From NCBI GenBank assembly GCA_016861205.1, contig BOKX01000001.1, positions 200,539 through 264,538 of the forward strand: 64,000 nucleotides of DNA, written 5' to 3'. Each line of letters starts with the position of its first letter. Positions within the stretch are counted from its first letter, which is position 1. The position numbers were made by a program, and so were the translations under genes. Below the pieces are notes generated by a model. That model worked only from the letters and a program-made list of their open reading frames with translations. It was not told the DNA's origin and made no database searches. This document shows positions 1,945 through 32,785 of this stretch, one piece after another. Source of the DNA: Patescibacteria group bacterium (GTDB lineage Bacteria > Patescibacteriota > Microgenomatia > UBA1400 > PJMF01).

Positions 1945-2502
1945 ATGGGGACTGTGAGCACAACAGTGATACCCTCCAAAGTTACCCTAGTCATGGTCAG
2001 TAGTGCTGATGGGCACATCACGAAGCACGATGATGGCCGCGTCTATCTCTGGGCCTCACCTGAGGATCAAGCCCATTTTGTGGCACTCAAGGACCGGGCT
2101 GACGTGATTATTATGGGTAGTCGGACGTATTTGGCCGCGGCTGACGTGATACAGTTGCAGCCCAGCACTCTTCGAGTTGTCATGACTCAGCGGCCGGCTG
2201 AGTGGCAGGCAAAAATGGTCCCAGGGCAGCTCGAGTTTAGTGACGAAACACCAAGTGAGTTGTTACGCCGGCTGACCGAGGCTGGGTACACCCAAATTCT
2301 CTTAGTGGGAGGGAGTGTTTTGAACTCTGCTTTTTTAGCAGCCGGATTAGTCGACGACCTTTACCTGACAGTTGAACCTAAAGTCTTTGGTACGGGGAAA
2401 CATCTCGCAAGTCTGCCTCACCAGGTGCAGCTTGAGTTGCTGGAGACACAGCAGCTCAATGACCAGGGGACCCTCGTTTTGCACTACCGAGTTTTGAGAT
2501 AA
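1945..2502 (+). CDS. dihydrofolate reductase family protein (RibD C-terminal domain type)
   Basis: VTLVMVSSADGHI...LLVGGS pattern typical of the RibD_C/DHFR-like family. The track start at 1906 is TTG. ATG at 1945 is preceded by GGTGG. Confidence 0.65.
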   Translation: MGTVSTTVIPSKVTLVMVSSADGHITKHDDGRVYLWASPEDQAHFVALKDRADVIIMGSRTYLAAADVIQLQPSTLRVVMTQRPAEWQAKMVPGQLEFSDETPSELLRRLTEAGYTQILLVGGSVLNSAFLAAGLVDDLYLTVEPKVFGTGKHLASLPHQVQLELLETQQLNDQGTLVLHYRVLR

Positions 2503-3575
2503 TTGGTGAGCCGAGTTGGGATAATGTTCTTTTGGCTAGTCCTGATCCAGGGCAAATCCGCTAAGCCAACTTTCCCAACATACAGTAATTGAGCATCCCC
2601 ACCTGTGTCGAGAAATTGTTTAACTTCTTGTAAGCCTTCATAATACATAGCTTCTTTAGCGAAACAACCTGGCTGGCTGCTATCACTGTACCCACGTTTG
2701 AGTCGAAATGTTCGTTGGAAAGCAAGATCAGGAGATAGGCCAGCCGCTACCATATATTCAAAAACATCGATGAACGAAGCTTCTCTTGCTAAATGTCCAG
2801 CAAGATACTTGATGGCATGATGTTTGCGTGCCTGAGAGCCATTGTCAGCACAGTAATCTCCCAAAAACGAGGCCAGGCCTTCTTCGGTTTTTATATAAAG
2901 TGGCAGGGCTTTGGTCAGTAACATAGCGCTTTGTTGAGCAGCATTCACAGCTCTCAAGACATGACCATCAATTTCGTGAGCTAAAGTTGTATCGAGACTG
3001 CTAAAGACAAATTGTGGGTGATTTCCGATCCAGACTGTTTTATTGGTGCTTTTGACTCTGATGTAGAAATCACTCGATGTAGAAACGGCTATCTGCCAGT
3101 CGTTTATGTTGTAACGTAGCAGGTACTCCTGAATTTTTTGTATGAGCTCCATGGGCTGATATGTTTCTGATTCAGTGTCGCTCACTGGTAGTTGCGCATC
3201 CTGTTTGGCATGTTCAAGCATTATCGGCGAAAAGTGACAGTTAAAGAGTTGTTCAGAAATATGGCCAAACTCAGATTGACCGCGGTAGAGTAATAACTCT
3301 AAATAAGTCCGAACTTCAAAGTGTTTTCGAGAAACAAGCCAGGTTTCAAGGTTACTTATTTCTGGGATGTCCAGGCTGGTAACAATCCGAAGCTGCTCCG
3401 TCAATTTTTGCGTGGGTACTTCTTCATACTTGAAGACAGGATTCTGTGTTGGTTTGGCTAAAAAATCTCGACGTACCTCATCGAGATTGCTGGGGGTGAG
3501 TAGTTCTGTGATGGCTAGGTCTTGGCGAATTTTAGTTAATTGTTCGAGAACTTGGAACGGTAAGGTATTTGCCAT
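2484..3575 (-). CDS. DUF1704 / QEGLA-motif family protein
   Basis: 363 aa with HEIDGH and a TEEGLA motif, resembling the flavohemoglobin expression-modulating QEGLA family. ATG at 3575. Confidence 0.5.
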   Translation of the reverse strand: MANTLPFQVLEQLTKIRQDLAITELLTPSNLDEVRRDFLAKPTQNPVFKYEEVPTQKLTEQLRIVTSLDIPEISNLETWLVSRKHFEVRTYLELLLYRGQSEFGHISEQLFNCHFSPIMLEHAKQDAQLPVSDTESETYQPMELIQKIQEYLLRYNINDWQIAVSTSSDFYIRVKSTNKTVWIGNHPQFVFSSLDTTLAHEIDGHVLRAVNAAQQSAMLLTKALPLYIKTEEGLASFLGDYCADNGSQARKHHAIKYLAGHLAREASFIDVFEYMVAAGLSPDLAFQRTFRLKRGYSDSSQPGCFAKEAMYYEGLQEVKQFLDTGGDAQLLYVGKVGLADLPWIRTSQKNIIPTRLTNYLKTR

Positions 3576-10600: not shown

Positions 10601-10751
10601 AACCATCTTCCCGTTTAAAAACCGACTCGAGCCATTGTTGAAACGGTGTCCGATAGGACATCTCCGAGCTATTTTCATCCTCAATATACCTGGCAAGGCT
10701 TTGCAGATAGTGGGCAGTTGCCTCAGCGATTTGGGTGAATTGATTGATCAT
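7605..10751 (-). CDS. Type IIG (MmeI-like) restriction-modification enzyme: fused PD-(D/E)XK endonuclease + N6-adenine methyltransferase + specificity domain
   Basis: 1048 aa. N-terminal PDFVI...YIEVKK nuclease motif. MTase motif I VLDVATGTGTFL and motif IV GNPPY. Visibly AT-richer than flanking genes. Confidence 0.8.
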   Translation of the reverse strand: MINQFTQIAEATAHYLQSLARYIEDENSSEMSYRTPFQQWLESVFKREDGYLVQHDQRSIDGNKPDFVISRNKIPLLYIEVKKVGVDLEKIAKSDQATRYFGYTNLVITDYLTFYLFRNGHPYDESISLGTYHHGTQTVQPHPEQGERLARTLTDFVFSQKEPIKSGKHLAKIMGGKAQRIRENVIAFLAQPNEKNASLYKLKQVIQDHLVAELDIPHFADMYAQTLVYGLFAARYQDSTLESFTRQEARDLVPPSNPFLRHFFDHIAGANFPPRLDVIVTELCDVFSHADVNALISSYYSKSQTENFDEKDPIIHFYEDFLSEYDAAKKVEMGVFYTPQPVVKFIVRAVDELLKTEFGLNKGLADSSKRSIRADLQNAKGKIVKGNKEYHTVQVLDVATGTGTFLNEVVQHIHQQFAGQEGLWPTYAATELLPRLHGFELMMASYTIAHLKLGLTLRQTGVKDFPGRLGIYLTNTLEKPVDYAPQQALFGLLDSIAEESRQASRIKSEVPVMVVIGNPPYSGVSQNMFYTESDAYRVEPGGHQKLQERKHWLNDDYVKFIRFAETMIEKNGNGIVAMITAHGYIDNVTFRGMRWHLRNTFDEIYVLDLHGNSNKKETAPDGSKDENVFDIKTGVSILIGVKRQNSKPKKKLATVYKANQFGLRKEKLAFLNTASLTDVAWEELKPEVETWLPEVAGKSDYTTGINLAELFPLNTTGIVTMGDTFAIAKHKSELTSNITNFLNQQISAEELKTQFGLGKNYGQWINTNKAKIEFDQQKIVPILYRPFDLRYTYFDGNLIWRPRHKVMSQFLAGDNIGIGFSRTVTGSYAWNDVQVTRHVTEFGYMATRVGNGAPVAPLYIYYPDGTKQANLDPNIWTKLSNIAGKNTTAEEVLDYVYGYLHSPSYRAKFAPFLKTDFPRVPWPKSANQFWQIVELGTQLRKLHLLEATNQLTIETTYPITGDNTVAKYEFEPATQRVWINDEQYFGNVSHIAWKMFIGGYQPAQRWLKDRKGEKLDANDLAHYQIMIAVLKRTEELMHKIDAVISSTN

Positions 10752-18531: not shown

Positions 18532-18645
18532 ACGAAAGATTGTAGCAGAATTAATATATAAATATGGAAATAACTATAGTTATTTTATTGAAATCGGGTT
18601 TAAACTTCCGGTCAGGGTATGAAATTTCCAGAGGAAAAACGTATG

Positions 18646-18720
18646 GGTGCCCAACGAGACTCGAACCCGCGACCTCCGCTTTCACAGAGCGGCGCTCTAA
18701 CCAACTGAGCTATGGGCACC
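18646..18720 (-). tRNA. tRNA-His (anticodon GTG)
   Basis: Cloverleaf read by eye: an extra 5' G-1 paired with C73, D-arm TAGCTCAGTTGGTTAGAGC, anticodon loop CTGTGAA, T-arm GGTTCGAGTC. CCA is not encoded. Confidence 0.85.
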
Positions 18721-19440: not shown

Positions 19441-21429
19441 ATGCGTGGATCGAGACTTTTTGTATCAAGTGTTCTGGCGTTGGTGATGGTCGCCCTAACT
19501 ACTGTCAAAGCTCAGGCAGCCAGCTACTATGTGGACTCGAGTGCTGGTAATGACAGCAATAGCTGTCAGCAAGCCCAAAACCAAGCCACGCCCCGCCGAA
19601 CTGTGAACGGAGTTAACGGTTGTGGTCTCACGGCCGGTGATACGGTTTATTTCAGAGGCACTTTTGATCAAACACTGACACCAAACGCTAGCGGCCAAGT
19701 TTTATTGGCCACCACCAACATCGCTCGGGTAAGTGGCTCAGTAGTTGAGTTCAACTCTGCCCCACCTGCTACCTCAGCTACCAGCGACTTTGTGTATGTG
19801 TATGGCAGTCGCAAAGGTAACAGCGGCGCATTTAAGGTGATCTCGAGTAGCGGCAATCAGGTCACTGTGGATACCAGCAATTTACCAGGTGGAGCATTTG
19901 TGACAGAGACGGCCACCGAGCCAGGCGATTTGCAAGCCGCTGTGGTGCGGCCGCTTCACTTCACTGCCTGGGACAAAAATAACCCGCCAACCTGGAATCT
20001 CAATTCAGCCATGTACTACGGTTTTAATCGACCAGCTGTCATGTTGAGTTACTTGCGGTCAATGTCCGGAGCGAACAATGAGGTCTGGGGAGCAGTCTAT
20101 CTCGACGGTGGTAACAGCGGCAGCAACGACTACTTTGTGATGGATCACGTTGAGATTCAGAACGCTGCGACAGCCGTCGGTTTGTCTAACAACGATTTCC
20201 AAGCCAACTACGGTATTTTGCAACACAACCACTTCCACAATGTCGGTTACAACGGTGGTGTTTCGGACGAAATTATTTATTGGGGTAACTTTTTGCAAAA
20301 CCAAAAACACCATGATTTTGTTCAGATGATGTACAACCGTATTGGGCCCCAAAAGCGCTTCAATGTGAGTAACACTTCTGGAGCTCAAGCTGTCGGTGAT
20401 GGTATCGAGATCAAAGCCAGCTCGCACAATCCGACTGTGTGGGGCAACATTATCACCGGTATTCACCTCACAACTGGGTGTGATGACTCACCCATCAGAT
20501 CAGCTGGTTCAAATGGCTTCATCGCCAATAACTACATCAGTGACGTGTATCCCCAGCCAGAAAACATTCCTGGTTGTGGTATCTCGATTGTCGAAGGCGC
20601 AGCCGGCGCCCAAGGTACCATTGTTGCTAACAATGTGATCGCCAATGTCAAAAGTGTTGGTATCCGAGTTTTTAACACCAGTAACGTTCAGATCTTGAAT
20701 AACACGATTTACAACATTCGTTCTATTCAAGGTTGCTGTGCAGAGGAATCAGCCGGTATTCAAGTTCATACCTATGGTGCAGCAGCCACGAATGTGGTGG
20801 TGCGCAACAACATTGTCCACACGGCACCAGTGGGCATTGGTCGTTATCCTTGGGACTTGAATGGCTCGTTTAGCATGAGTTTGGGCAACAACATTGTGTT
20901 TAATGCTGGTACGCCTTGGGGTGTTGGTGCTACCCAAACCAGTACCGATCGGGTAGCTGATCCTGGCTTGGTCAATCCAGCCGGTGGTAACTTCAGCTTG
21001 AGCGCCAACTCAACTGCCATCGGCGCTGGAGCCGATTTATCAAGTGTCTTCACTGTTGATAATCACAATGCTGCCAACCCAACTCAACAAACAGCTGTGC
21101 CCGTGACTCGTAGTGGTAGTTGGGAGATTGGTGCATATGATGCAGGCGGCACAGGTGGAGGTGTTACTCCAGTTCCGTCACCTTCAGTAGTGCCAGTGAC
21201 ACCTACACCCTCACCAAGTGTGCAGCCAACTCCCAGTCCCAGCGCTGAGTGTCTGGCAGCTGACTTGAATCGTGACGGGGTGGTGAATACGGCTGACAGA
21301 ACCTTACTAATAGCGGACTTTTTCAAGCGTTTGCCAAGCCTAGCAGCAGCCGATATTAACGCAGATGGTATTGTGGATGTGACCGACTATGGACTGTTAG
21401 TGCGCGTTTTTGGGCAAAGCTGTCAGTAG
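19441..21429 (+). CDS. secreted right-handed beta-helix (pectin-lyase-fold) protein with Pro/Thr/Ser linker and C-terminal dockerin
   Basis: Signal peptide MRGSRLFVSSVLALVMVALTTVKAQA. Repetitive N-x-x-(I/V) beta-helix rungs. PT-rich linker. Duplicated Ca-binding dockerin segments DLNRDGVVNTADRTLL and DINADGIVDVTDYGLL. Confidence 0.75.
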   Translation: MRGSRLFVSSVLALVMVALTTVKAQAASYYVDSSAGNDSNSCQQAQNQATPRRTVNGVNGCGLTAGDTVYFRGTFDQTLTPNASGQVLLATTNIARVSGSVVEFNSAPPATSATSDFVYVYGSRKGNSGAFKVISSSGNQVTVDTSNLPGGAFVTETATEPGDLQAAVVRPLHFTAWDKNNPPTWNLNSAMYYGFNRPAVMLSYLRSMSGANNEVWGAVYLDGGNSGSNDYFVMDHVEIQNAATAVGLSNNDFQANYGILQHNHFHNVGYNGGVSDEIIYWGNFLQNQKHHDFVQMMYNRIGPQKRFNVSNTSGAQAVGDGIEIKASSHNPTVWGNIITGIHLTTGCDDSPIRSAGSNGFIANNYISDVYPQPENIPGCGISIVEGAAGAQGTIVANNVIANVKSVGIRVFNTSNVQILNNTIYNIRSIQGCCAEESAGIQVHTYGAAATNVVVRNNIVHTAPVGIGRYPWDLNGSFSMSLGNNIVFNAGTPWGVGATQTSTDRVADPGLVNPAGGNFSLSANSTAIGAGADLSSVFTVDNHNAANPTQQTAVPVTRSGSWEIGAYDAGGTGGGVTPVPSPSVVPVTPTPSPSVQPTPSPSAECLAADLNRDGVVNTADRTLLIADFFKRLPSLAAADINADGIVDVTDYGLLVRVFGQSCQ

Positions 21430-21439
21430 GTGCTGAGGT

Positions 21440-22927
21440 ATGACTACACATCGTCTTACTCATCGTTGGTTCGTGTTCTTGGGTATTCTCCTCACGGCAG
21501 TTGCTTTCCGTCTCTACAAAATTACCAGTGAACCACTGGACTGGCATGCCTTCCGGCAAGCTGACACCGCGTCTGTGACGCGTGAGTATGTGAAGCACGG
21601 AATTAATTGGTTGGTACCTCATTATCAAGATTTAGCTAATATTCAATCAGGTCTCGACAATCTCGAGGGCTATCGGATGGTCGAGTTCCCGCTCGTCAAC
21701 GCGCTGGTGGCATGGATCGTGATGAACACGGGCTGGTCGCTGGTGGTTACCAGCCGGATAGTATCGGTCATTTTTTCGCTGGGAACCCTGATCTGTTTGT
21801 ATTTACTGGTGGAAAAGCTATCTGGCAAAACGATAGCTCGTTTAACGGCTCTCGTGTATGCGGTACTGCCGTATGCGGTTTTTTACTCGCGAGCTATTCT
21901 GCCTGAACCAGCCATGCTCTTCTTCTCTACCCTGTCCCTATGGGCATTTCTGAACTGGCTACAGCTCAAAGCAAACGGTCGCTGGCTGTGGTATCTGGTG
22001 AGTTTTATGGCCTTGTTGATCGGTTTGCTGCTCAAGCCAAACGTAGCATTTCTAGTACCAATTTATGCTGGGTTAATCGCGTATCACGAATGGCCACTCA
22101 AAGATCGCTCACTGGGTGGATTGTTGCGGAAAGCCAGTTACTACATGCTAACGGTTGGTGCTGGTATGGTAGTGGCGATGGGAACATTAGTTTGGTGGCG
22201 AAAGTGGATTGAACAGTATCCTTCTGGCATCCCGGCTCTTGACTGGTTGTTTAATGGTAACGGCATTCGTTTCCGACCTGCCTGGTTCCGGTGGCTGGGT
22301 TGGGAGCGATTGACGAAGCTCATCTCTGGCTATTTTGGGGTGCTGGTGTTGCCGTTTAACTTTCTTGATCATCATAAAGATCTTTGGGTCTATAGTACTT
22401 GGTGGCTCGGCATCGCTGTTTACTTGTCTGTAATCGCCACTGGCAACGTTCAACATGACTACTATCAAGTTTTGGCTGTACCCATTATCTGTATCTCGTT
22501 GGCACGTGGCAGCGTAGCACTGTACCACTGGCTAAGAGCTAAAGTTGGCATCAGGCCGGCCTTTGGGTTGGTGGCTGGACTCCTGGTTTTGGGTTGGTGG
22601 TTCGCTTGGCAGGCGGTTAAAGGTTACTACTCGATTAATCATCCCGAGTACATCATGGCGGGACAGGCAGTAGATCGGTTGACACCACCAGACGCATTGG
22701 TTATTGCCCCGGCCTTTGGGGACACCCAATTTTTATTCCAGACCAACCGCCGTGGTTGGCCAATTGGCTTTGAGATCGAAGACAAAATTGCGAAAGGTGC
22801 GCAGTTTTACATCACCACCAGTGATGATGATGAAGCCCGACGTTTGTCCAAGGAATACACGGTGGTTGAGAAAACGGAAACGTATTTGTTAATTGATCTG
22901 CGGCAAAAACAATCTCAGCCCAAATAA
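21440..22927 (+). CDS. GT39/GT83-type (ArnT/PMT-like) lipid-carrier-dependent glycosyltransferase
   Basis: 495 aa polytopic membrane protein with the N-terminal motif region typical of ArnT/PMT (YKITSEPLDWHAFRQADTA...). GAGG right before the ATG. Confidence 0.7.
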   Translation: MTTHRLTHRWFVFLGILLTAVAFRLYKITSEPLDWHAFRQADTASVTREYVKHGINWLVPHYQDLANIQSGLDNLEGYRMVEFPLVNALVAWIVMNTGWSLVVTSRIVSVIFSLGTLICLYLLVEKLSGKTIARLTALVYAVLPYAVFYSRAILPEPAMLFFSTLSLWAFLNWLQLKANGRWLWYLVSFMALLIGLLLKPNVAFLVPIYAGLIAYHEWPLKDRSLGGLLRKASYYMLTVGAGMVVAMGTLVWWRKWIEQYPSGIPALDWLFNGNGIRFRPAWFRWLGWERLTKLISGYFGVLVLPFNFLDHHKDLWVYSTWWLGIAVYLSVIATGNVQHDYYQVLAVPIICISLARGSVALYHWLRAKVGIRPAFGLVAGLLVLGWWFAWQAVKGYYSINHPEYIMAGQAVDRLTPPDALVIAPAFGDTQFLFQTNRRGWPIGFEIEDKIAKGAQFYITTSDDDEARRLSKEYTVVEKTETYLLIDLRQKQSQPK

Positions 22928-22935
22928 CACCCAAG

Positions 22936-23009
22936 TGTGCCCGGCGGGACTCGAACCCACGACCTACTGCTTAGAAGGCAGTTGCTCTATCCAGCTGAGC
23001 TACAGGCAC
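22936..23009 (-). tRNA. tRNA-Arg (anticodon TCT)
   Basis: Acceptor GTGCCTG/CGGGCAC, D-arm TAGCTCAGCTGGATAGAGC, anticodon loop CTTCTAA, T-arm GGTTCGAGTCC. Confidence 0.85.
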
Positions 23010-25106: not shown

Positions 25107-25574
25107 TTACGCGGGTTTGAGCGAACTCTGATTCACTTGCTCGAGCAATTTGCCTGTGGCTTTTTGCCAGTTTTCGATTTCACTTTTTGAGAGTGGAGCA
25201 AATAGATTATTTTCGAGTTCAAAAATAATTTTGAAAGCTGCTTGAATTAAAGTTTTACCTTGTTCTGTCAGGCTAATCTGATTCGCACGTCGGTTAGCTG
25301 GATTCTCAATCCGATTGATGAGGTGTTTATGCTCAAGGGTTTCAATTAACCGACTAATGGCGGCTTGTGTGAGTTGCAAATGATCGGCCAACTCACGCTG
25401 AGTAATAGATTGACACAGCTCAAGGAAGACTAAGACTTTGAACTGAGCATACGTGACTTGGCACTCATGTTGTAGGACCAGGTCAGCGTGTTTAATTAAG
25501 CGGGCGGCCAGTTGCACTAAACTAGCTGCTTTGAGCTCAAACAGCCGACAGTTATTACTAGGTATTTTTGACAT
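25107..25574 (-). CDS. MarR-family transcriptional regulator
   Basis: Winged-HTH region QRELADHLQLTQAAISRLIETLEHKHLINR...RRANQISLTEQG. Start taken at ATG 25574 (155 aa). The other ATGs at 25592 and 25607 and the TTG at 25634 are alternatives. Confidence 0.7.
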   Translation of the reverse strand: MSKIPSNNCRLFELKAASLVQLAARLIKHADLVLQHECQVTYAQFKVLVFLELCQSITQRELADHLQLTQAAISRLIETLEHKHLINRIENPANRRANQISLTEQGKTLIQAAFKIIFELENNLFAPLSKSEIENWQKATGKLLEQVNQSSLKPA

Positions 25575-25593
25575 CAAAGTGTATTTTAACATA

Positions 25594-25622
25594 TTGACAA
25601 TTAACATGTTAAGTATTATGAT
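25594..25622 (+). promoter_or_regulatory. near-consensus sigma70 promoter TTGACA-N17-TATGAT for the efflux operon, with embedded 12-bp palindrome TTAACATGTTAA (putative MarR operator)
   Basis: TTGACA at 25594-25599 and TATGAT at 25617-25622. The perfect palindrome at 25601-25612 sits in the spacer, between the divergent marR and efflux genes. Confidence 0.5.
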
Positions 25623-25667
25623 GCACTGTCTCAAAAAAGACTATCAAAAAGCATCAATTTACATCTT

Positions 25668-27146
25668 ATGAAACCCACTTTTTCTACCTTACGACGCCCA
25701 AATTTGAAGCCTATGGTTGTTGGTTGGCGGCGGTTGACTGCCCGAGCTACTGCCTTCATTCAAATCCGACCATTTAGTAGTTTTCTCGGTTTACTGGCCG
25801 TGATGGTTGCTCTGGTGGTAATTGGCAACTGGTTGCGAAAGCCGCCAGCGCAGCCGACAGCTGCTGAGCCAGAGCCAAAACCAGTTAGTACGTACACTTT
25901 GGGTGGTAACCCTACCGTTAGTGTGCAAGCTAAGGTCGACAAATCTGGTGTTATCACTGTGGTCGCCCAAACTGCTGGAATTGTGAATAAACTAAATGTG
26001 ACTGAAGGTCAAAGTGTTTACAAAGGTCAGCGTTTAGTGAGTTTAGCCAGCAACTATCAAGGTGCCAACGCTGCCAGTTTAACTCGCCAACTGAGTCAAC
26101 GCAGTTACCAACACACCCTTGATACCTACGACACTCAAAAGGCCCTCATTCAACAACAGCGAGAGCTAGCTGACAAAAATGAAGTTCAAGCCAAAGAACT
26201 CCGCGCCATCGGTCGTGAAGCCGAATCTGACACTCGAACGCTCATTGATTTGAATAACGAAATCGTTTCTTACCTTGATCAGCAACTGGCAAGTTATGAA
26301 GCTTCAAATGTGAATGGCAGTAACGATGCGGTCATCAACGACCTCAAAGGAGCCAAAGCGCAAGTTTTAGGTGGCTTAAGCGGGTTAAAGGCTAGCCTTA
26401 ACGCCAGCGAGTATACCAACAGCGAAGATGAAGAAATTGCTGGTATTACTGGTTTAGTGAGAGCCACTACCCACAAACAACTCGATCTGCAAGAGAAAGC
26501 CCTCGACCTAAGTCGTGATGTGGCATTGCTAAACGTCCGTTTAGCCCAAGTTGGTGAATCATTAATGTACCCTGCTGCACCGAGTGCCGCAGTGGTTGAA
26601 CGAGTTCATGTTAGCGTCGGCCAAGCAGTTAGCCCTGGTATGCCAATCGCTACCCTGACTGCTAAACAAGGCACAGTTAACTTAGAAGCTTTAGTAGCTG
26701 CTCCAATCGCCAAACAAGTTTCGCTTTTAACACCTAGTGTCTTGCTCATCGATGGTCAACAACTGAAAGTGACACCTCGGTATGTGAGTACAGAGCCAAC
26801 GAATGGCAGTCTGTACTCAGTGTTGTTTACACTATCTGATGAGTTGGCTGCTCAAGTCCACGACGGAGAGTTGGTCAGCTTGACACTAACCTTGGGTGCC
26901 CGAGCTAATCAAGATGCCTACATTCCACTTGATGCTGTTTACTACAGCCAAAGTGGGGCTTATGTGTTCATCGCTGATACAGCTCAAACCCCGGCTCGCG
27001 CTAAAGTTCAGAAAGTGACTTTAGGTCATGTGTATGGACCAATGGTCGAAGTTATTGATGGTTTGCCAGCTCAAGTAATGGTGATTTTAGATCGCAATGT
27101 GGTTGATACTGATCCAGTGCAACCAGCCGGTGAAATTGCTCAGTAA
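25668..27146 (+). CDS. efflux membrane fusion protein (HlyD/RND periplasmic adaptor family)
   Basis: N-terminal TM, a long coiled-coil region, and a biotin-lipoyl-like segment (VVAQTAGIVNKLNVTEGQSVYKGQRLVSLAS). Confidence 0.7.
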   Translation: MKPTFSTLRRPNLKPMVVGWRRLTARATAFIQIRPFSSFLGLLAVMVALVVIGNWLRKPPAQPTAAEPEPKPVSTYTLGGNPTVSVQAKVDKSGVITVVAQTAGIVNKLNVTEGQSVYKGQRLVSLASNYQGANAASLTRQLSQRSYQHTLDTYDTQKALIQQQRELADKNEVQAKELRAIGREAESDTRTLIDLNNEIVSYLDQQLASYEASNVNGSNDAVINDLKGAKAQVLGGLSGLKASLNASEYTNSEDEEIAGITGLVRATTHKQLDLQEKALDLSRDVALLNVRLAQVGESLMYPAAPSAAVVERVHVSVGQAVSPGMPIATLTAKQGTVNLEALVAAPIAKQVSLLTPSVLLIDGQQLKVTPRYVSTEPTNGSLYSVLFTLSDELAAQVHDGELVSLTLTLGARANQDAYIPLDAVYYSQSGAYVFIADTAQTPARAKVQKVTLGHVYGPMVEVIDGLPAQVMVILDRNVVDTDPVQPAGEIAQ

Positions 27147-27173
27147 TGAGTGAGAAGTTAGGCAACACACAAC

Positions 27174-30100
27174 ATGCCACGCAGTTCAAAAACTACCAAG
27201 CCAGCTCAATCAACTCAAAGTAGTGATCAATCCTACATGAGTCGGTTAAAGTTCGACCCCAAGTTACTTGGTGGTTGGATTTCACAGTATCTGAACAATA
27301 TTCGGATTGTGGTTTTGTTGGTCCTGACCATCTTACTGATGGGCACAGTTAGTTACTTCAGTTTGCCGAAACGTCTCAATCCAGAAGTTGAAATTCCGAT
27401 CGTCAACGTGGTGACTATTTTGCCAGGTGCTTCGCCAGAAGACGTTGAGTCATTGGTGACAGTTCCTATCGAGAACAAACTGCGAAGTGTCGAAGGACTC
27501 GACACCATGACCTCTGTTTCTAATCCAAACGTGTCGGTCATTACCATGCAGTTTACTTCCAACATCAAGCCAGATAAGGCTAAGGATGATGCGCAAGCTT
27601 TGGTTGATGCAGTGACTGATTTGCCTGAGGATGCCCAAGCGCCACAGGTTAGTGCCCTCGACTTTGAAGACCAACCAGTTTGGACATTTGCCGTGACTAG
27701 TTCTGGAGATATACCAACTTTAATGAATTTTGCCCATCACTTGGAAGATCGGTTAGAAAACTTGTCCAAAGTTGACCGAGTTGAAACAGCTGGTTTAGAG
27801 CAGGATCAGGTTTTGGTCGAAGTTAGTCCTGAGAAACTACAGCAATATGGTCTGAATCCGCTCACCTTGGCCCAGGCAGTTCAAAAAGGAACAGGTTCAT
27901 ATCCTGCTGGTTCAATTACGACCACTACCAATAGTTTTGCAGTCACTATTAATCCTAGTTTAACCTCGCTTGAGGATTTGCGTCGCTTGCAACTTAATGT
28001 AGATGGTCAGGTGGTTAGCCTCGGTGAACTCGCAACAATTACTCGTCGTCCACCAAGTAACCAAGCAGTGGCCTTGTTGGGTAAACCACAAGCTGAGGCT
28101 CGCCGAACAGTGACTTTTTATGTGTACAAAACCAGTGCAGTCAGTATCGATGAAGCTGGCAAACAGATTGAAGAGTCTGTTCACGAAGCGCTGACTGAGC
28201 GTCCAGGTCTATTTGAAGTGACGACGATCTCAAATACAAGCGAAGAAATTGCAGATCAATTTGCCGACTTGCTGGTTGAGTTTCGATCCACGATCATCTT
28301 AGTGTTCGCCTGTTTACTGCTATTCTTGGGTTTCCGCCAAGCTTTGATTTCATCACTGACTGTGCCACTTACCTTTTTGAGTGCCTTTATCTTCATGAAC
28401 ATTATTGGCATGTCGATTAACTTTTTGTCTTTGTTTGCTTTCTTGTTGGCGTTAGGTCTGTTGGTCGATGACACAATCGTTGTGGTATCGGCCATGACTG
28501 CGTACTACAAATCTGGCAAGTTTAATCCGTTGGAGACTGGTTTGATGGTCTGGCGAGATACGATCGTGCCAATTTGGTCAACGACGATCACAACAATTTG
28601 GTCCTTCGTACCTTTGTTGTTAAGTACTGGCATTATTGGTGAGTTCATCAAGCCTATCCCAGTGGTGGTGACAGTGACCATGATTTCATCGACGGCTATT
28701 GCTGTGTTTGTAACATTGCCAATCATGATTATCTTGTTGAAACCGAAACTGGCTCATCGTGTGGTGGTGTTGCTGAAAGTGGTTGGAATTTTAGCTGTTG
28801 TAGCTGGTTTGTTTGCAGTGGCCAAAGGTAACCCGCTGTTACCACTTATCATTGGTTTGTTTGGGTTTTGGCTGATTGTGGTTAAGCTGGTTGGTAAACA
28901 AGTTGCGGATCGAGTAGCGAAGTTCTTCTCACAAGCCCGCTTCAAAAAAATTGGTCAAACTTTGCACAAGTATGCGAATCACGGTTTGATTGATGTCGAA
29001 GGCTTTGCCAACGGTTACTACAACGTTATAACTCGTGTTTTAGAGAAACGAAGCAGCCGTCTAAAAGTGATTTTCGCAATTGTCATTTATGCCATCGTCG
29101 CATTTGCGTTACTGCCACTTGGTTTAGTGAAGAATGAGTTCTTTCCCAAATCTGACCAAACTACTGTTTACGTGAACTTAGAGTTACCGGCTGGTACTCG
29201 GCTTGAACACAGTTACGAAGTGGCTGAACGATTTTTGCCTCAGTTGCAAAACATTGAACACACTGAGTTTGTAGTGGCAGAGGTTGGCAAAAGTTTTGAC
29301 AGCAATGGCAGCCGAAGCAATACGGATAACTCAGTTCTGTTCTCGCTACATTTGCCCGCTGAAGATGAGCGGCCAGTTAGCTCTATCAACATTGCCCAGC
29401 ACATCCGTGATACGTTCACAACTTTTGAAGGGGGAAAAGTTTCGGTACTTGAATTGAGTGGTGGTCCGCCAGCAGGTGCTGACGTGCAGATTAAATTGTT
29501 GGGTGATGATCTGGGCAAACTGGATGGTTATGCCAATCAAATTATGGATCATCTTGAACAGCAACCTGGTTTAACCAACGTCGACAAAAGTATTAAAACC
29601 GGCACCACCCAGCTCGTCTTTGTTCCAAATCAGAGTCAATTGGCTGAAGCTGGTTTGAGTGCTGATCAGCTTGGTTTGTGGTTGCGAACGTATGCAAGTG
29701 GTTTCACGCTCGACTCAGTAACCTGGCTGGGAAATGGAACAGATAAATCTGATGTCGTGTTCAAGTTAACAACTGATCCAGACGCGAACGGTTTATCCAG
29801 TTTGTCGATAACCTCAATGTCAGGTCGTAGTTACCCATTAAGTTCACTCGGTCACTGGGAGTTGCGGCCAAACCCAACTCAGATTACGCGCGAAAATGGC
29901 AAACGAACCATCTCGGTTTCAGCTAGTAGTGTGGCGGGTTACTCAATCAGCGAGCAGAACGCGGAACTACTTGAGTACACTAAGAGCCTCAACTTACCAG
30001 ATGGGTATGAGTGGGCCACCGGTGGTGTAAATGACGAAAACCAGAAGTCAGTCAACTCAATCTTGCAGGCCATGGTGGTCGCAGCAATTTTGATTTTGGT

Positions 30101-30536
30101 GACGATGGTCATTCAGTTCGGTTCATTCAGGCAAGCTTTCATCGTGCTGTTGGTGATTCCGTTGGCTGTTTCCAGTGTTTTCTTTATTTTTGGTCTGACC
30201 GGAACGCCATTGTCATTCCCTGCTTTGATTGGTGTATTGTCATTGTTTGGAGTGGTCGTGACCAACTCAATGTTTATTGTCGACAAAATCAACTTGAATC
30301 AGCGTGAAGGCATGAACCTGAAAGCTGCAATTGCTGACGCTGGTGCTAGCCGGTTAGAGCCAATTATTTTGACTAAACTGTGTACAGTGCTTGGCCTTTT
30401 GCCAATTACGATTGCTGACCCATTGTGGCGCGGTCTCGGTGGAGCAATCATCTCCGGTTTACTGCTGTCGAGTACGATTATGTTGCTCTTCATTCCAGTG
30501 GTGTACTACGAGTTTTTCAAAAACGAAGCACGATAA
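27174..30536 (+). CDS. RND-superfamily efflux transporter permease (AcrB-like)
   Basis: 1120 aa. Two 6-TM bundles separated by large hydrophilic loops, typical RND topology. Immediately downstream of the adaptor gene. Confidence 0.8.
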   Translation: MPRSSKTTKPAQSTQSSDQSYMSRLKFDPKLLGGWISQYLNNIRIVVLLVLTILLMGTVSYFSLPKRLNPEVEIPIVNVVTILPGASPEDVESLVTVPIENKLRSVEGLDTMTSVSNPNVSVITMQFTSNIKPDKAKDDAQALVDAVTDLPEDAQAPQVSALDFEDQPVWTFAVTSSGDIPTLMNFAHHLEDRLENLSKVDRVETAGLEQDQVLVEVSPEKLQQYGLNPLTLAQAVQKGTGSYPAGSITTTTNSFAVTINPSLTSLEDLRRLQLNVDGQVVSLGELATITRRPPSNQAVALLGKPQAEARRTVTFYVYKTSAVSIDEAGKQIEESVHEALTERPGLFEVTTISNTSEEIADQFADLLVEFRSTIILVFACLLLFLGFRQALISSLTVPLTFLSAFIFMNIIGMSINFLSLFAFLLALGLLVDDTIVVVSAMTAYYKSGKFNPLETGLMVWRDTIVPIWSTTITTIWSFVPLLLSTGIIGEFIKPIPVVVTVTMISSTAIAVFVTLPIMIILLKPKLAHRVVVLLKVVGILAVVAGLFAVAKGNPLLPLIIGLFGFWLIVVKLVGKQVADRVAKFFSQARFKKIGQTLHKYANHGLIDVEGFANGYYNVITRVLEKRSSRLKVIFAIVIYAIVAFALLPLGLVKNEFFPKSDQTTVYVNLELPAGTRLEHSYEVAERFLPQLQNIEHTEFVVAEVGKSFDSNGSRSNTDNSVLFSLHLPAEDERPVSSINIAQHIRDTFTTFEGGKVSVLELSGGPPAGADVQIKLLGDDLGKLDGYANQIMDHLEQQPGLTNVDKSIKTGTTQLVFVPNQSQLAEAGLSADQLGLWLRTYASGFTLDSVTWLGNGTDKSDVVFKLTTDPDANGLSSLSITSMSGRSYPLSSLGHWELRPNPTQITRENGKRTISVSASSVAGYSISEQNAELLEYTKSLNLPDGYEWATGGVNDENQKSVNSILQAMVVAAILILVTMVIQFGSFRQAFIVLLVIPLAVSSVFFIFGLTGTPLSFPALIGVLSLFGVVVTNSMFIVDKINLNQREGMNLKAAIADAGASRLEPIILTKLCTVLGLLPITIADPLWRGLGGAIISGLLLSSTIMLLFIPVVYYEFFKNEAR

Positions 30537-30609: not shown

Positions 30610-31833
30610 ATGAAAAAATACTTGCTGCCCCTGTTTTTCTTTTTAGTTAGCTTGCTTACCCTTGTTGTACCCAAACCGGTACTAGCTGCCGAAAACATTC
30701 ACATTGACAGTGCTGAGTGGTTAGACTCGGAAGTAATTCGCTTCCACTACTCCGCAAACACTTATGCTCCTGGTGGGATTTCAGTGGTTTTCACTACGAG
30801 TGATGGTAGTCGAACGTATCATGCAGGAGCACAAGATTATCCGACCAGCGCTACCACAGGCTATGTGGATCTTGATTCAAACGGCGATATCAACACCCTG
30901 TACTGGGGTGCTGACGCTGGTTACACCCGCTACTACGCTTTAGCTGGCTGGGGTGACAACGACAATATGTCAAATACAGTAAGGTTGCCAGCATACGTGG
31001 CGCCGCCGGAAATTTCTATCTCTGCCAGTCCGAGCGCAGGTACCCATGAGATTGGAGATGCTTTCTCAGTTGATGTCAGAATCCAGAGTCAAGATGGAGC
31101 CTTCAACGCTGCTCGGGCGAACCTAGCCATATCTTCAAACTTGACGTTACTCAATATTGTGACACCTCAATCAGGTGCTTGTAACCTACAGTACACCGAT
31201 TCACCTACTGTAAGCTCACCGTCATTTGCAGGTGCCATTTATGGGGGTTCATCAACAGACTGTACAGCTTTTACCTTAGTTCTTGAGGCAAATGAGGTCG
31301 GTACAGGTACTGTTACTTTGAGTAACGGTTCCATCAAGTCATACACGGATAACAGTGAGATCTTGACAGGAGTGGTTAACGGCAGCTTTAGTTTGGTGGC
31401 TGCCACACCAGAGCCAACACCACCTGTAGTTGATTTCAGTATCACTAATCAACTCAAGACATACTTGGAAAGCTTCACTTTGTCAGGTATGAAGTTTGAG
31501 TACGTGACAGCTATTAGCGTGGATGGTTCCAGCACCGCTTCAGCCTACCCAACTAGTACTTCATGGACACATCCTGTCTCCTTAGCCATTGGCCCCAATG
31601 AATTCACAGTGGCCGCCAGTGTGGGCAGTACCGAGTCAAGTTCGCAACAAGTGACTGTGACGCGGCACACTCTTGGAGACATTAACGGTGATGGTGAAGT
31701 CGATCTGATCGATGCTTCTCTCTTCGCTGTTGACTGGGACAAGACTTCCAACTTAACCTATCTTCTGTCGGATATGAATAACGACGGAAACGTTAACTTG
31801 ACTGACTTGTCAATCTTGGCTAAGTTACAGTAA
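30610..31833 (+). CDS. secreted protein with cohesin-like beta-sandwich domain and C-terminal dockerin
   Basis: Signal peptide MKKYLLPLFFFLVSLLTLVVPKPVLA. Central domain with a cohesin-like pattern (G..FSVDVRIQS...FNAA...PSFAG.IYGGSSTDC..FTLVLEA...G.VTL). Dockerin repeats DINGDGEVDLIDASLF and DMNNDGNVNLTDLSIL. Confidence 0.6.
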   Translation: MKKYLLPLFFFLVSLLTLVVPKPVLAAENIHIDSAEWLDSEVIRFHYSANTYAPGGISVVFTTSDGSRTYHAGAQDYPTSATTGYVDLDSNGDINTLYWGADAGYTRYYALAGWGDNDNMSNTVRLPAYVAPPEISISASPSAGTHEIGDAFSVDVRIQSQDGAFNAARANLAISSNLTLLNIVTPQSGACNLQYTDSPTVSSPSFAGAIYGGSSTDCTAFTLVLEANEVGTGTVTLSNGSIKSYTDNSEILTGVVNGSFSLVAATPEPTPPVVDFSITNQLKTYLESFTLSGMKFEYVTAISVDGSSTASAYPTSTSWTHPVSLAIGPNEFTVAASVGSTESSSQQVTVTRHTLGDINGDGEVDLIDASLFAVDWDKTSNLTYLLSDMNNDGNVNLTDLSILAKLQ

Positions 31834-31861
31834 GTGCTGAATCTGCCCTAGATTGAGTCAC

Positions 31862-32785
31862 ATGCGAAAAGTGTTGATCGCGATCGTTATTCTGAGTAGC
31901 TTGATACTTCTCTGCCCCAGCTCTGCGTATGCAGCTGGGGCAGTTATGCAACTTGATCCTCACTCTGGCGACTATGGGACTGAGTTTACCACTCAGCTCA
32001 GAGTGGTTGGCCAAGGGGTTAGTTTCAATGCAGCTGCCGCCACAGTCGTTGTCTCCCCAACCTTACGAATCAAAGAGGTAATCTACGGCGATTGCAACTT
32101 TTCATTTCTCAAAACACCCACCACGAACAACCCATCATTTTCTGGGGTGATCCTGTCCGGGTCGGAAGACAGTTGCAGTGTTTACACACTGCGTTTGGTT
32201 CCGATTAAAAAAGGCAGTGCTGCTATTACGGTCACAGACGCTTCAGTAAAGCAGTTTGGCGATGCTGCAGAGATTCTCCAGTCGGTTAAGAATGCTGAGT
32301 TCACGCTGACTGGTGAAGTTGTTTTCGATGTGCAGCCGGCAGCCAGTGCAGATGCCGATACTTACACAACAGTTGTTAACGTGATTCACGATGCTCAGAC
32401 CCCGGCCTCGGACGTTAAAGTAACCCTTGTGGCAGTCACCAATGCTGGGACTGTTTCGCAGCAGTCTGCTACCACGAATCAGTTGGGGCAAGTCACATTT
32501 AACAATTTATCGGCTGGTCTTTATCAAATCCAAGTTTGGAATCAAGAACAAGAACTGGCGCAAGTGTTAGTTACGATCGGTGGTGACACCTCGCAGTTCA
32601 TGTTTACTATCGACCTGAGCCAGCAAACGACAAACCCATTGCTCAAACCGTCCACTGATCCGACAGATATTGAGCCTCAAACAAAATGGTCTTGGTGGAG
32701 GTATGCCGTTGTCGCAGCCGTTGCAGGGATGCTGGCCACAGCCGCAACCACAGTCCTGATGTTCCACTTCAAACGAACACGATAG
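31862..32785 (+). CDS. secreted cohesin-like domain protein with transthyretin/CarboxypepD_reg-like domain and C-terminal membrane tail
   Basis: ATG at 31862 gives the signal peptide MRKVLIAIVILSSLILLCPSSAYA; the track start is TTG. The N-terminal domain is a clear paralog of the cohesin-like domain of the upstream gene (FNAAAATVVVSP...NPSFSGVILSGSEDSCSVYTLRLVP...GSAAITV). The C-terminus is WWRYAVVAAVAGMLATAATTVLMFHFKRTR. Confidence 0.55.
   Translation: MRKVLIAIVILSSLILLCPSSAYAAGAVMQLDPHSGDYGTEFTTQLRVVGQGVSFNAAAATVVVSPTLRIKEVIYGDCNFSFLKTPTTNNPSFSGVILSGSEDSCSVYTLRLVPIKKGSAAITVTDASVKQFGDAAEILQSVKNAEFTLTGEVVFDVQPAASADADTYTTVVNVIHDAQTPASDVKVTLVAVTNAGTVSQQSATTNQLGQVTFNNLSAGLYQIQVWNQEQELAQVLVTIGGDTSQFMFTIDLSQQTTNPLLKPSTDPTDIEPQTKWSWWRYAVVAAVAGMLATAATTVLMFHFKRTR

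Follow-up and report, generated by a model that had tools for sequence, protein, structure and literature searches.

Adjacent genes for a dockerin-bearing beta-helix protein and a GT-C glycosyltransferase in a candidate phyla radiation bacterium

Organization of the locus

The window analysed here, a 64,000-nucleotide stretch of a Patescibacteria genome, carries two neighbouring genes that encode a right-handed beta-helix protein with a C-terminal dockerin, predicted to be exported, and a polytopic glycosyltransferase (Table 1). An earlier note on this DNA had described a secreted, 662-aa beta-helix protein with a Pro/Thr/Ser linker and a canonical dockerin, followed after 10 nt by a lipid-carrier-dependent glycosyltransferase. 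Both descriptions were borne out, the first by Pfam, AlphaFold2 and the sequences of the dockerin loops, the second by the Pfam PMT_2 and PMT profiles and a GT-C structural model. No terminator was found in the 10-nt spacer, so the two genes are probably read on one transcript and hence co-regulated to some extent. Such a spacing is ordinary in so compact a genome: short gaps between genes are usual in the window, where 13 of the 29 pairs of same-strand neighbours are separated by 30 nt or less.

Table 1. Features of the locus and of the cohesin-like region downstream (positions in the window).
Feature	Position	Strand	Description and basis
tRNA-His(GTG)	18645..18719	-	Bounds the three-gene block upstream
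Beta-helix/linker/dockerin gene	19441-21429	+	662 aa; ORF check, coordinates unchanged
Sec-type signal peptide	19441..19518	+	Residues 1-26; read from sequence
Right-handed parallel beta-helix	19519..21144	+	Residues 27-568 (~540 aa), predicted catalytic module; Pfam, AlphaFold2, Foldseek
Disordered linker	21145..21246	+	Residues 569-602, Gly-rich then Pro/Thr/Ser-rich; sequence, AlphaFold2
Dockerin module	21247..21426	+	Residues 603-662, two Ca-binding loops, conserved Cys either side; Pfam, sequence
Spacer between the two genes	21430..21439	+	10 nt, GTGCTGAGGT
GT-C gene	21440-22927	+	495 aa; ORF check, coordinates unchanged
GT-C fold glycosyltransferase	21440..22927	+	PMT_2 superfamily, predicted polyprenyl-phosphate-sugar-dependent, with small C-terminal alpha/beta extracytoplasmic domain; Pfam, AlphaFold2, Foldseek
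tRNA-Arg(TCT)	22935..23009	-	Convergent; 8 nt past the GT stop codon
Adaptor-like protein, secreted	30610..31833	+	Cohesin-like module 31006-31398, C-terminal dockerin 31672-31824; Pfam, profile search
Scaffold-like protein, membrane-anchored	31862..32785	+	Signal peptide, cohesin-like module 31934-32317, prealbumin/CarboxypepD_reg-like domain, C-terminal TM anchor 32687-32770; Pfam, sequence, profiles

An exported beta-helix protein with a linker and a dockerin

The signal peptide (MRGSRLFVSSVLALVMVALTTVKAQA) ends in VKAQA ahead of ASYYVD. AlphaFold2 places an N-terminal helix at residues 3-19, and hydrophobic leaders align across all close orthologs; the public gene call (P0121, 647 aa) starts 15 codons later and would cut into this leader. 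Judging from the leader, the protein is exported via Sec. The module that follows matched Pfam Beta_helix (E 9e-9, 35.6 bits; cut-off 25.9). In the AlphaFold2 model (mean pLDDT 84.7, mostly above 90 in the helix module), beta-strands run from residue 28 to about 520, residues 569-598 of the linker are disordered with pLDDT below 50, and the C-terminal module is helical.

The right-handed beta-helix that the earlier note had read from the sequence was thus recovered in the model, and Foldseek matched it to GH136 lacto-N-biosidases, phage tailspike depolymerases, PL6 lyases and the epimerases AlgG and AlgE4, as well as to the adhesin PfbA, with TM scores no higher than 0.49. The fold is shared with beta-helix CAZymes at large (GH136, phage tailspike depolymerases, PL6/PL9 and AlgG/AlgE C5-epimerases; Foldseek probability 1.0), but TM scores to these were just 0.2-0.49 and identities 8-15%, no family-specific catalytic motif was recognised in comparison with the known enzymes, and neither catalytic residues nor a substrate could be derived from the best matches (TM 0.41-0.49). 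By sequence, the only PDB match was 9rx2, an unnamed "parallel beta-helix repeat protein" (E 0.003). We found 75 homologs; an alignment of 35 of them, taken from loci labelled Patescibacteria, Chloroflexota and archaea, has about 80 invariant columns, including many Asp, Glu, His, Lys and Cys residues inside the helix (GDGIEIK, GCDD and GCGIS). We infer that the module is catalytic and that the protein, a member of an uncharacterised, apparently glycan-active family, most likely serves as a hydrolase, lyase or modifying enzyme of polysaccharides.

Past its Gly run, the linker (GGTGGGVTPVPSPSVVPVTPTPSPSVQPTPSPSA) is 74% Pro/Thr/Ser, and a PS indel alters its length in the close strain L019. The dockerin matched Pfam Dockerin_1 (E 1.1e-6, 29.2 bits; cut-off 22.9) and, weakly, NCBIfam dockerin_GC. 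It is built as a type I-like dockerin, from duplicated segments that each consist of an EF-hand-like loop (D-x-N/D-x-D-G-x-x-N/D-x-x-D) and then a helix: the canonical 12-residue calcium loops are DLNRDGVVNTAD (608-619) and DINADGIVDVTD (638-649), and AlphaFold2 places the helices at residues 617-627 and 647-655. The flanking Cys pair is kept in the four closest orthologs. The same succession of enzyme module, PT linker and C-terminal two-loop dockerin is seen in cellulosomal and non-cellulosomal dockerin enzymes. Linker and dockerin are retained in the closest orthologs (P0122, P0123 and P0124), and versions that carry them form a small minority of the beta-helix family; the flexible linker and the calcium-binding dockerin were probably gained in this lineage.

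A GT-C glycosyltransferase

The downstream protein matched Pfam PMT_2 (PF13231; E 3.5e-10, 40.8 bits, cut-off 26.1) and PMT (PF02366; E 2e-7, 31.3 bits, cut-off 22.7), both over just the TM helices at residues 86-234 and both with profiles that take in ArnT-like proteins too and thus do not discriminate between PMT and ArnT. Its AlphaFold2 model (pLDDT 91.3, pTM 0.91) shows a GT-C fold: the protein combines a multi-TM bundle with acidic residues in loop 1 and a likeness to solved GT-C enzymes, which accounted for all 29 PDB matches obtained with Foldseek at E of 0.001 or below (TM about 0.5-0.61). STT3 (E 1.7e-9), ArnT (1.9e-8) and ALG12 (5.7e-8) scored best among the enzymes compared; Pmt4 (4.3e-4) and Pmt1 (1.4e-2) ranked 29th and 34th, after STT3, ArnT, ALG12/9, PglB and AftA. 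A sequence profile of the glycosyltransferase matched yeast Pmt1 in the PDB with E 0.14. The family is large, with more than 1,700 homologs, mostly from Patescibacteria by their source names, and well conserved over many genomes (mean column identity 55%).

A DE motif in the first extracytoplasmic loop has been stated for all GT39 proteins (PMC11727336). We searched loop 1 (residues 25-85) for a DE dipeptide and found none, the C-terminal domain containing the sole DE of the protein (residue 464); the acidic residues of loop 1 that are invariant in the family are D34 (LDW) and D42 (ADT). Actinobacterial GT39 enzymes (M. tuberculosis Rv1002c, C. glutamicum Cg_1014 and Cellulomonas fimi Celf_3080) resemble our protein in being polytopic GT-C proteins that are about 500 aa long and have no MIR domain; however, our protein, although above threshold for PMT and PMT_2, has no loop-1 DE, and its family usually lies in a polysaccharide cluster. 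The earlier assignment to GT39 (PMT/ArnT-like) therefore stands in part: the GT-C fold with PMT profiles and the structural likeness to ArnT agree with it, whereas the missing DE motif and the ranking of STT3, ArnT and ALG12 above Pmt4 and Pmt1 leave the GT39/PMT label itself weak. On the predicted fold, its description as a lipid-carrier-dependent GT-C enzyme is correct.

ArnT (GT83; undecaprenyl-phosphate-L-Ara4N:lipid A transferase) is one of the closest matches by structure (5f15/5ezm, E about 2e-8, TM 0.60/0.57). It has the same TM bundle and small C-terminal extracytoplasmic alpha/beta domain, and some orthologs of our protein are called "ArnT-like" at JGI. The likeness is structural only: there was no PDB sequence match, and the arn operon neighbours (ArnC, ArnD and others) are absent from the window and from 83 related loci. 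A clear ArnT ortholog, which the earlier note had named as part of an outcome contrary to its own reading, was thus rejected. Candidate phyla radiation bacteria are not known to have lipid A, so the acceptor of ArnT is not expected here. The only NCBIfam match was to WsfD, a GT-C hexose transferase of S-layer glycan (slg) clusters, and fell far under the cut-off (22 against 80 bits, E 5.7e-5).

Conservation of the pair and usual genomic contexts

The gene pair is kept only among strains with proteins at least 90% identical, that is, within the window's own lineage. Strains L001 and L002 carry it at 100% identity; in L019 the beta-helix protein is 99% and the glycosyltransferase 93% identical, with the 10-nt spacer unchanged. 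The clusters at 90% identity or more contain one further beta-helix and one further glycosyltransferase member, the longest contig being 36.8 kb for either. None of the three orthologs nearest to the beta-helix protein, P0122 (68%), P0123 (62%) and P0124 (60%), has a GT-C neighbour. Profile searches detected the glycosyltransferase family in none of the beta-helix loci retrieved from beyond the lineage of the window, and neither the beta-helix family nor a dockerin in any of 83 glycosyltransferase loci (684 kb). Taking ~95 loci outside this species, the two families never occurred together. In GCA_025993785.1 the two orthologs are on separate contigs (8 and 39), and the glycosyltransferase ortholog P0002 shares a genome with the linker- and dockerin-bearing P0123, unlinked. 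Adjacency across divergent genomes was therefore not found, and co-occurrence in relatives, to which the earlier note had looked, gave no conservation of the pairing outside its own lineage, a result that the note itself had listed as counting against its reading.

Each family has a usual home of its own. The glycosyltransferase family lies within a conserved surface-glycan cluster in 70 of the 83 candidate phyla radiation loci, with genes for RuvA, RuvB, a hexapeptide acetyltransferase, GT2, a Wzy_C-like protein, GT-C, GT4, GT2, GT4 and GT4 on one strand. Most of its relatives adjoin a Wzy_C/O-antigen-ligase-like protein together with GT2 and GT4 enzymes, as in WsfD-type/Wzy_C side-chain systems, a context that we take to resemble slg or O-antigen-type clusters; the window has no such cluster. 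Indeed, none of the cluster neighbours was found in the window, nor was any other glycan-biosynthesis gene near the pair. The beta-helix family lies in glycan clusters at all six Anaerolineae/Chloroflexota loci (GT4, GFO/IDH/MocA oxidoreductase, polysaccharide deacetylase, GT2, beta-helix, GT4, acetyltransferase), and its candidate phyla radiation versions are outside this context, with a dockerin gained.

Probably two functional genes without a specific link

The explanation that we favour, with a probability of about 0.68 for the whole of it, is that both genes are functional and, though neighbours and probably co-transcribed, have no specific link to each other; their adjacency would be ordinary and of recent origin in a compact genome, and gives no evidence of a relation between substrate and enzyme. 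The GT-C enzyme would move a sugar from a polyprenyl-phosphate carrier at the outer face of the membrane. Since the usual home of its family across the candidate phyla radiation is a surface-glycan/exopolysaccharide cluster, its acceptor is most likely a cell-envelope glycan or a lipid-linked precursor.

Both proteins might instead act on one extracytoplasmic glycan, which the GT-C enzyme would extend or decorate and the beta-helix protein would trim, epimerise or release (compare AlgG/AlgL, PelA and PslG), the pair being the remnant of a compacted cluster. The separate occurrence of each family among GT2, GT4 and hexapeptide-acetyltransferase genes would fit, as would the Foldseek matches to alginate epimerases and polysaccharide lyases. 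We nevertheless consider this rather unlikely, given that the families are never found together outside this species and that the pair has no other glycan-biosynthesis gene near it; moreover, cluster exit and dockerin gain in the candidate phyla radiation fit an outward degradative or adhesive role better.

The earlier note had proposed that the neighbours may be a substrate and its enzyme. On such a reading, the GT-C protein would O-glycosylate Ser/Thr of the linker as the beta-helix protein leaves the Sec translocon, shielding it from proteases, either as a dedicated partner or as a general O-glycosyltransferase. Probable co-transcription, a disordered linker rich in Pro/Thr/Ser and PMT and PMT_2 matches above threshold all favour this reading, and there is a precedent, in that actinobacterial GT39 enzymes have as clients the PT-rich linkers of secreted glycoside hydrolases, the linkers of Cellulomonas GH6 cellulases being heavily O-mannosylated by them (PMC11727336). 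The unlinked P0002 in the genome of P0123 would also leave room for a general role that does not depend on adjacency; none of the findings points to such a role in particular. However, the pairing is confined to near-identical strains (0/83 glycosyltransferase loci, and absent from the closest orthologs), and the polysaccharide-type cluster of the glycosyltransferase family has its own Wzy_C/O-antigen-ligase-like protein; a widespread and highly conserved enzyme family is, moreover, set against few linker- and dockerin-bearing beta-helix versions. With an unconserved pairing and a polysaccharide-cluster context, adjacency does not support an enzyme/substrate relation. As the protein also lacks the loop-1 DE motif stated for all GT39 enzymes (PMC11727336) and resembles STT3, ArnT and ALG12 more than Pmt4 and Pmt1 (profile match to Pmt1 at E 0.14), we regard O-glycosylation of the linker as unlikely. 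The earlier interpretation as a whole is partly supported.

Cohesin-like proteins in the same window

Under the explanation of two functional genes without a specific link, the beta-helix enzyme would most likely be tethered at the cell surface, with its dockerin bound to the divergent cohesin-like modules that the adaptor and anchor proteins encoded at 30.6-32.8 kb carry, and the tethered enzyme could act on an extracellular glycan, possibly of a host or prey. Pfam recognised a dockerin (Dockerin_1 on the adaptor-like protein, E 5.9e-8) and the prealbumin-like domain in these proteins. The cohesin-like domain is common to both genes (34% identity, E 3e-21). Of the two proteins in the window, one also bears a dockerin and the other a TM anchor, a scaffold-type context. 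Pfam Cohesin matched no protein of the window even at E up to 10, and only weakly 2 of 19 members of the domain family (E 0.047). With a deeper profile (A6), the top three PDB matches were cohesins of Ruminococcus flavefaciens scaffoldins (5m2o and 5aoz among them); they were weak, covering nearly the whole domain at E 0.0033 and 0.005 and its N-terminal part only at E 0.047. Smaller profiles found nothing. The family has 559 representatives, and Dockerin_1 was also present on 45 of the 64 members scanned. The proteins that the earlier note had called cohesins are plausibly divergent ones: the deep-profile matches, weak as they are, consistently point that way, whereas Pfam Cohesin gives no match.

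That the beta-helix is instead a non-catalytic adhesin, and its dockerin a mere calcium-binding stabiliser without a cohesin partner, is very improbable: PfbA among the Foldseek matches, a beta-helix without assigned catalytic residues and a window without a Pfam cohesin would fit, but the ~80 invariant columns over 35 homologs argue for an active site, the family occurs in Chloroflexota biosynthetic clusters, and at a distance of 9 kb there is a conserved pair of genes with cohesin-like modules, a domain family most of which co-occurs with dockerins.

The arrangement follows the logic of R. flavefaciens ScaA/ScaB, with an adaptor (cohesin-like module and dockerin) and an anchor (cohesin-like module and membrane anchor), and it is the ScaB cohesins that A6 matches. 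Unlike classical cohesins, the domain here is about 125 aa long, contains a pair of conserved Cys residues and the motif GDCNFSF...NPSF, and goes unrecognised by Pfam Cohesin on single sequences. It also differs from scaffoldins, each protein having just one cohesin-like module and the anchor being a C-terminal TM helix with no SLH domain or sortase signal, and the organism, a candidate phyla radiation bacterium with a 1.15-Mb genome, is no fibre degrader. A putative cohesin-dockerin-like surface display system of this kind is a modestly interesting side story. The two-gene arrangement of adaptor and anchor is conserved in three further loci (L104, L105 and L106), and orthologs of the adaptor-like protein show synteny in L104 and L106.

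Architecture and fold of the beta-helix protein

The first gene of the pair encodes a protein of 662 aa, and its coordinates were confirmed. The protein starts with a typical Sec leader, MRGSRLFVSSVLALVMVALTTVKAQA, directly before ASYYVD, and two Pfam models, Beta_helix (E 9e-9) and Dockerin_1 (E 1.1e-6), match it beyond their curated cut-offs. Public gene calls start 15 codons downstream (database protein P0121, 647 aa); we prefer the longer reading because a hydrophobic leader precedes the conserved mature YYVDS start in all orthologs. An AlphaFold2 model, obtained with 35 homologs as input (mean pLDDT 84.7), showed an N-terminal helix and then a long beta-strand stack that begins at residue 28 and reaches about residue 520; residues 569-598 are disordered and constitute the linker (GGTGGGVTPVPSPSVVPVTPTPSPSVQPTPSPSA), and the C-terminal module is helical, with two canonical calcium loops, DLNRDGVVNTAD and DINADGIVDVTD. 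Leader, domain matches, model and loops bear out the architecture described in the earlier note, a secreted beta-helix followed by a PT/S linker and a dockerin: the protein is exported, its linker is flexible and its dockerin is canonical. Two cysteines (AEC...SCQ) flank the dockerin; the four closest orthologs keep them, and both ends of the module may therefore be linked by a disulfide clasp. The NCBIfam model of GC-type dockerins (dockerin_GC) matches this dockerin weakly, far under its cut-off, and was not used for membership.

The fold had been taken for a carbohydrate-active or adhesin-like one, and comparison of the modelled strand stack with known structures by Foldseek agreed. Matches included GH136 lacto-N-biosidases (E 4e-9, TM 0.41-0.49), phage tailspike depolymerases, PL6 and PL9 lyases, AlgG and AlgE4 epimerases and one adhesin. 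Sequence searches reached only an unnamed beta-helix protein, 9rx2 (E 0.003). We therefore regard the family as uncharacterised and glycan-active; hydrolase, lyase and epimerase activities cannot be told apart here.

Features of the window, with positions in the window
Feature	Position	Strand	Remarks
MATCAP-family (tyrosine carboxypeptidase-like) protein	2484-3575	-	
Type ISP restriction-modification enzyme	7605-10751	-	1048 aa; N6_Mtase and Type_ISP_C (E 1.9e-77)
ORF, 201 aa	18810-19415	-	no Pfam or NCBIfam match
Gene 1, beta-helix/linker/dockerin protein	19441-21429	+	ORF, 662 aa
Cysteine-flanked dockerin of gene 1	21247-21426		
Gene 2, GT-C glycosyltransferase	21440-22927	+	ORF, 495 aa; Pfam PMT_2 and PMT
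tRNA-His, tRNA-Arg			bounds of gene block; opposite strand to genes 1 and 2
ORF, 658 aa	23120-25096	+	no Pfam or NCBIfam match
MarR regulator, HlyD-type membrane-fusion protein, AcrB-type RND transporter	25107-30536		transporter 1120 aa
Dockerin-bearing cohesin-like protein	30610-31833		Pfam dockerin
Anchored cohesin-like protein	31853-32785		Pfam prealbumin-like domain; C-terminal TM helix, then KRTR
Class II Asp/Lys/Asn-type aminoacyl-tRNA synthetase	47990-50089	-	699 aa

We found 75 homologs of the beta-helix protein, with about 80 invariant columns among the 35 aligned; D320, K325 and D349 are among the invariant residues. Scanning contigs with this alignment gave only 9 loci because back-translated patterns are narrow; exact-protein look-ups added others. 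Members occur in loci labelled Anaerolineae or Chloroflexota, on two DPANN-type archaeal contigs and in Patescibacteria-type relatives. In all six Chloroflexota loci (L011-L015 and L017) the gene lies in the order GT4, GFO/IDH/MocA, polysaccharide deacetylase, GT2, beta-helix gene, GT4, hexapeptide-type acetyltransferase. The C-terminus varies from nothing to a TM helix or a linker with dockerin, the last form being a minority that includes the closest relatives of the window protein. An uncharacterised enzyme family is thus common to Chloroflexota, in polysaccharide clusters, to the candidate phyla radiation, with dockerins, and to DPANN archaea. The two archaeal loci (L016 and L018) belong to an Aenigmatarchaeota chromosome and another archaeal MAG, and the distribution suggests transfer among co-occurring small-celled lineages.

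The glycosyltransferase is a GT-C enzyme whose family usually lies in a surface-glycan cluster

The downstream gene had been assigned to a lipid-carrier-dependent glycosyltransferase of the GT39 (PMT) or ArnT type. The broader part of this assignment stands: besides the PMT_2 and PMT matches, a model (pLDDT 91.3, pTM 0.91) showed the GT-C fold, a TM bundle with a small C-terminal alpha/beta domain. The narrower part was not upheld. The best Foldseek matches were STT3 (1.7e-9) and ArnT (1.9e-8, with TM 0.61/0.57 for ArnT), and ALG12, ALG9, AglB, PglB, AftA and DPY19 also outranked Pmt4 (4.3e-4) and Pmt1 (1.4e-2). The profile of the family matched yeast Pmt1 at E 0.14 only. A DE motif in loop 1 is reported to be conserved in all GT39 enzymes and required for activity (PMC11727336); it was not found in loop 1 of the window enzyme, where the invariant acidic residues are D34 (LDW) and D42 (ADT). 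We therefore class the enzyme with the GT-C transferases of the PMT_2 superfamily; it is neither a demonstrable GT39 member nor an ArnT ortholog. Searches of PDB chains with the single protein or small profiles gave nothing useful, and the NCBIfam WsfD model scored far under its cut-off and was not used for membership.

Homologs of the transferase carry the source names Patescibacteria, Woesebacteria and Pacebacteria. In 70 of the 83 fetched loci the gene lies on one strand in the order RuvA, RuvB, hexapeptide acetyltransferase, GT2, a polytopic Wzy_C/O-antigen-ligase-like protein, GT-C, GT4, GT2, GT4, GT4 (for example L025, 66-11185, and 69 others alike), the first GT4 resembling PEP-CTERM/XrtA exopolysaccharide transferases. 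This context is a surface-glycan assembly cluster, so the most likely acceptor of the enzyme is a glycan or lipid-linked glycan. We propose that members of this family, which is conserved throughout candidate phyla radiation genomes, be read as parts of such a cluster and not as "GT39 protein mannosyltransferase" or "ArnT". Neither the cluster nor a polyprenyl-phosphate sugar synthase was found in the window by BLAST against the neighbours of the 83 loci and by Pfam on most large ORFs; the window's lineage has dispersed the cluster. The NCBIfam IctB model, tried for the Wzy_C-like neighbour, scored far under its cut-off and was not used for membership. This gene order is kept widely among candidate phyla radiation genomes, so that the cluster has a fixed position directly 3' of the Holliday-junction helicase genes.

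The gene pair is restricted to the same strain and close relatives

According to the earlier note, the two genes may encode a substrate and its enzyme, the transferase O-glycosylating the linker. We found the pair on two contigs of the same strain (L001 and L002) and in one close relative, L019, with the spacer unchanged (beta-helix protein 99%, transferase 93% identical). Clusters at >=90% identity contained one further member for each protein, the longest contig being 36.8 kb in each case; these members probably share one contig. The closest other orthologs of the beta-helix protein, P0122 (68%), P0123 (62%) and P0124 (60%), all have a PT-rich linker and a cysteine-bracketed dockerin, and no GT-C gene was present near any of the three. 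Assembly GCA_025993785.1 has the beta-helix ortholog and the transferase ortholog P0002 (66%) on separate contigs, 8 and 39 respectively, and P0002 is followed by NAGPA and acyltransferase genes; around the close transferase orthologs P0006 and P0007 (64-65%) the neighbours differ again. The transferase profile detected no member in the beta-helix loci fetched outside the window's own lineage, and the beta-helix profile and two dockerin seeds gave no match in the 83 transferase loci (684 kb).

The proposed pairing does not survive this comparison, a check that the earlier note itself had named. On this evidence the genes became neighbours accidentally, at the level of one species and in a compact genome, and their value as an enzyme/substrate pair is therefore lost: these are familiar kinds of protein, side by side by chance. 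Had the pairing held, it would have been a rare case of an enzyme and its substrate recognisable from the genome in bacterial protein O-glycosylation outside Actinobacteria. That the two enzymes act on one shared glycan would agree with the parallel cluster contexts of their families, but we consider it unlikely because transferase and beta-helix genes never co-occur in about 95 loci outside this species. The same complete lack of co-occurrence makes glycosylation of the linker by the transferase improbable, despite an actinobacterial precedent and the likely co-transcription of both genes.

The 10-nt spacer (GTGCTGAGGT) contains no terminator. Such spacing is the rule in the window and carries little functional information, because 13 of the 29 same-strand neighbour pairs are separated by <=30 nt. 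Scans for promoters and terminators gave no excess over shuffled expectation. Co-transcription would reflect recent juxtaposition only.

Mismatches between the window and L019 are unevenly spread: per 200 nt, mostly 0-6 (up to 14) over the beta-helix gene, 28-52 in the middle of the transferase gene (21500-22300) and 7-14 beyond. This looks like a recombined (mosaic) transferase allele or strong diversification of the central TM region.

A divergent cohesin-like family with a conserved putative adaptor and anchor

The dockerin had been expected to recruit the protein to cohesins at 30.6-32.8 kb. Pfam Cohesin is silent on both proteins encoded there, even at E <=10. They share a domain of about 125 aa (34% identity, E 3e-21) with the hallmarks GDCNFSF...NPSF and two conserved cysteines, which an exhaustive profile search found in 559 representative proteins. 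Dockerin_1 accompanied it in 45 of 64 members scanned; others had GH16, GH44, CBM96 or beta-helix modules. The three best PDB matches of a 19-member profile of the domain were Ruminococcus flavefaciens scaffoldin cohesins: 5m2o (E 0.0033) and 5aoz (E 0.005), aligned over almost the entire domain, and 5m2s (E 0.047), over the N-terminal part only. Single proteins and small profiles gave nothing useful against the PDB; only the 19-member profile reached cohesins, and Pfam Cohesin matched two of its 19 members weakly (E 0.047). The gene order, a cohesin-like protein with dockerin and Ig-like region followed by one with prealbumin-like domain and TM helix, is kept on three other contigs (window, 30610-32785; among the others, L104, 4630-6927, and L106, 1828-4659). 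Profile matches and gene order thus lend moderate support to cohesin-like domains, and this part of the earlier claim is probably right in that form. A PMT_2 gene adjoins the module in L104; we take this as chance because it is unrelated to the window transferase beyond the fold (E 0.39).

Non-cellulosomal cohesin/dockerin modules have long been known, and systems of adaptor and anchoring scaffoldins follow the same logic as the dockerin-bearing and TM-anchored proteins seen here. The tight link of the family to dockerins, together with a dockerin-bearing enzyme, suggests a possible route of enzyme assembly on the surface of small-genome bacteria; the divergent family and its conserved pair of genes are of modest interest as a by-product of this analysis. 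Dockerins in Patescibacteria were noted before, and for a cultivated Patescibacterium dockerin-domain envelope proteins are reported to be essential (PMC10633639); their binding partners are therefore worth finding.

We favour a reading in which the dockerin of the beta-helix protein would bind the cohesin-like modules and so display the enzyme on the cell surface, where it may act on an extracellular glycan; the transferase would decorate or extend an envelope glycan. More tentatively, we propose, with a probability of roughly 0.25, a minimal two-tier cohesin-dockerin display in the candidate phyla radiation, in which an anchor would hold an adaptor and the adaptor enzymes such as the beta-helix glycanase, through a divergent cohesin family missed by current domain libraries. 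If this two-tier display is correct, an ultra-small episymbiont would present glycan-degrading enzymes towards a host surface. In its boldest version, the neighbouring GT-C would also O-glycosylate the PT linkers of the displayed proteins.

Other genes of the window

Window proteins were found on a 1,149,156-bp NCBI contig, and the window represents a compact candidate phyla radiation chromosome. The remaining genes are housekeeping (SecA, aminoacyl-tRNA synthetases, ATP synthase, enolase, pyruvate kinase and POR) or encode a pump (MarR/HlyD/AcrB) and a restriction enzyme of Type ISP, the latter a single polypeptide. A genomic island between both tRNAs was considered and set aside, the GC content being unremarkable and an integrase absent. 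Public assemblies annotate the 201-aa ORF as a gene; it points away from the beta-helix gene, the two start codons being only about 25 nt apart, and its LALCCGDGV stretch resembles a SAM-binding motif. The 658-aa ORF lies directly past tRNA-Arg. The cohesin-like genes directly follow the pump genes. As this bacterium is believed to have no outer membrane, an RND pump of tripartite style would not be expected in it; we saw no gene for an outer-membrane factor in the window. MATCAP proteins are unusual in bacteria. In L006 (1-2949), a trio of 7TM_transglut, ATP-grasp and MATCAP genes also lies at a distance of a few kb to the beta-helix ortholog, probably by coincidence. The class II aminoacyl-tRNA synthetase has an added C-terminal HD phosphohydrolase domain.
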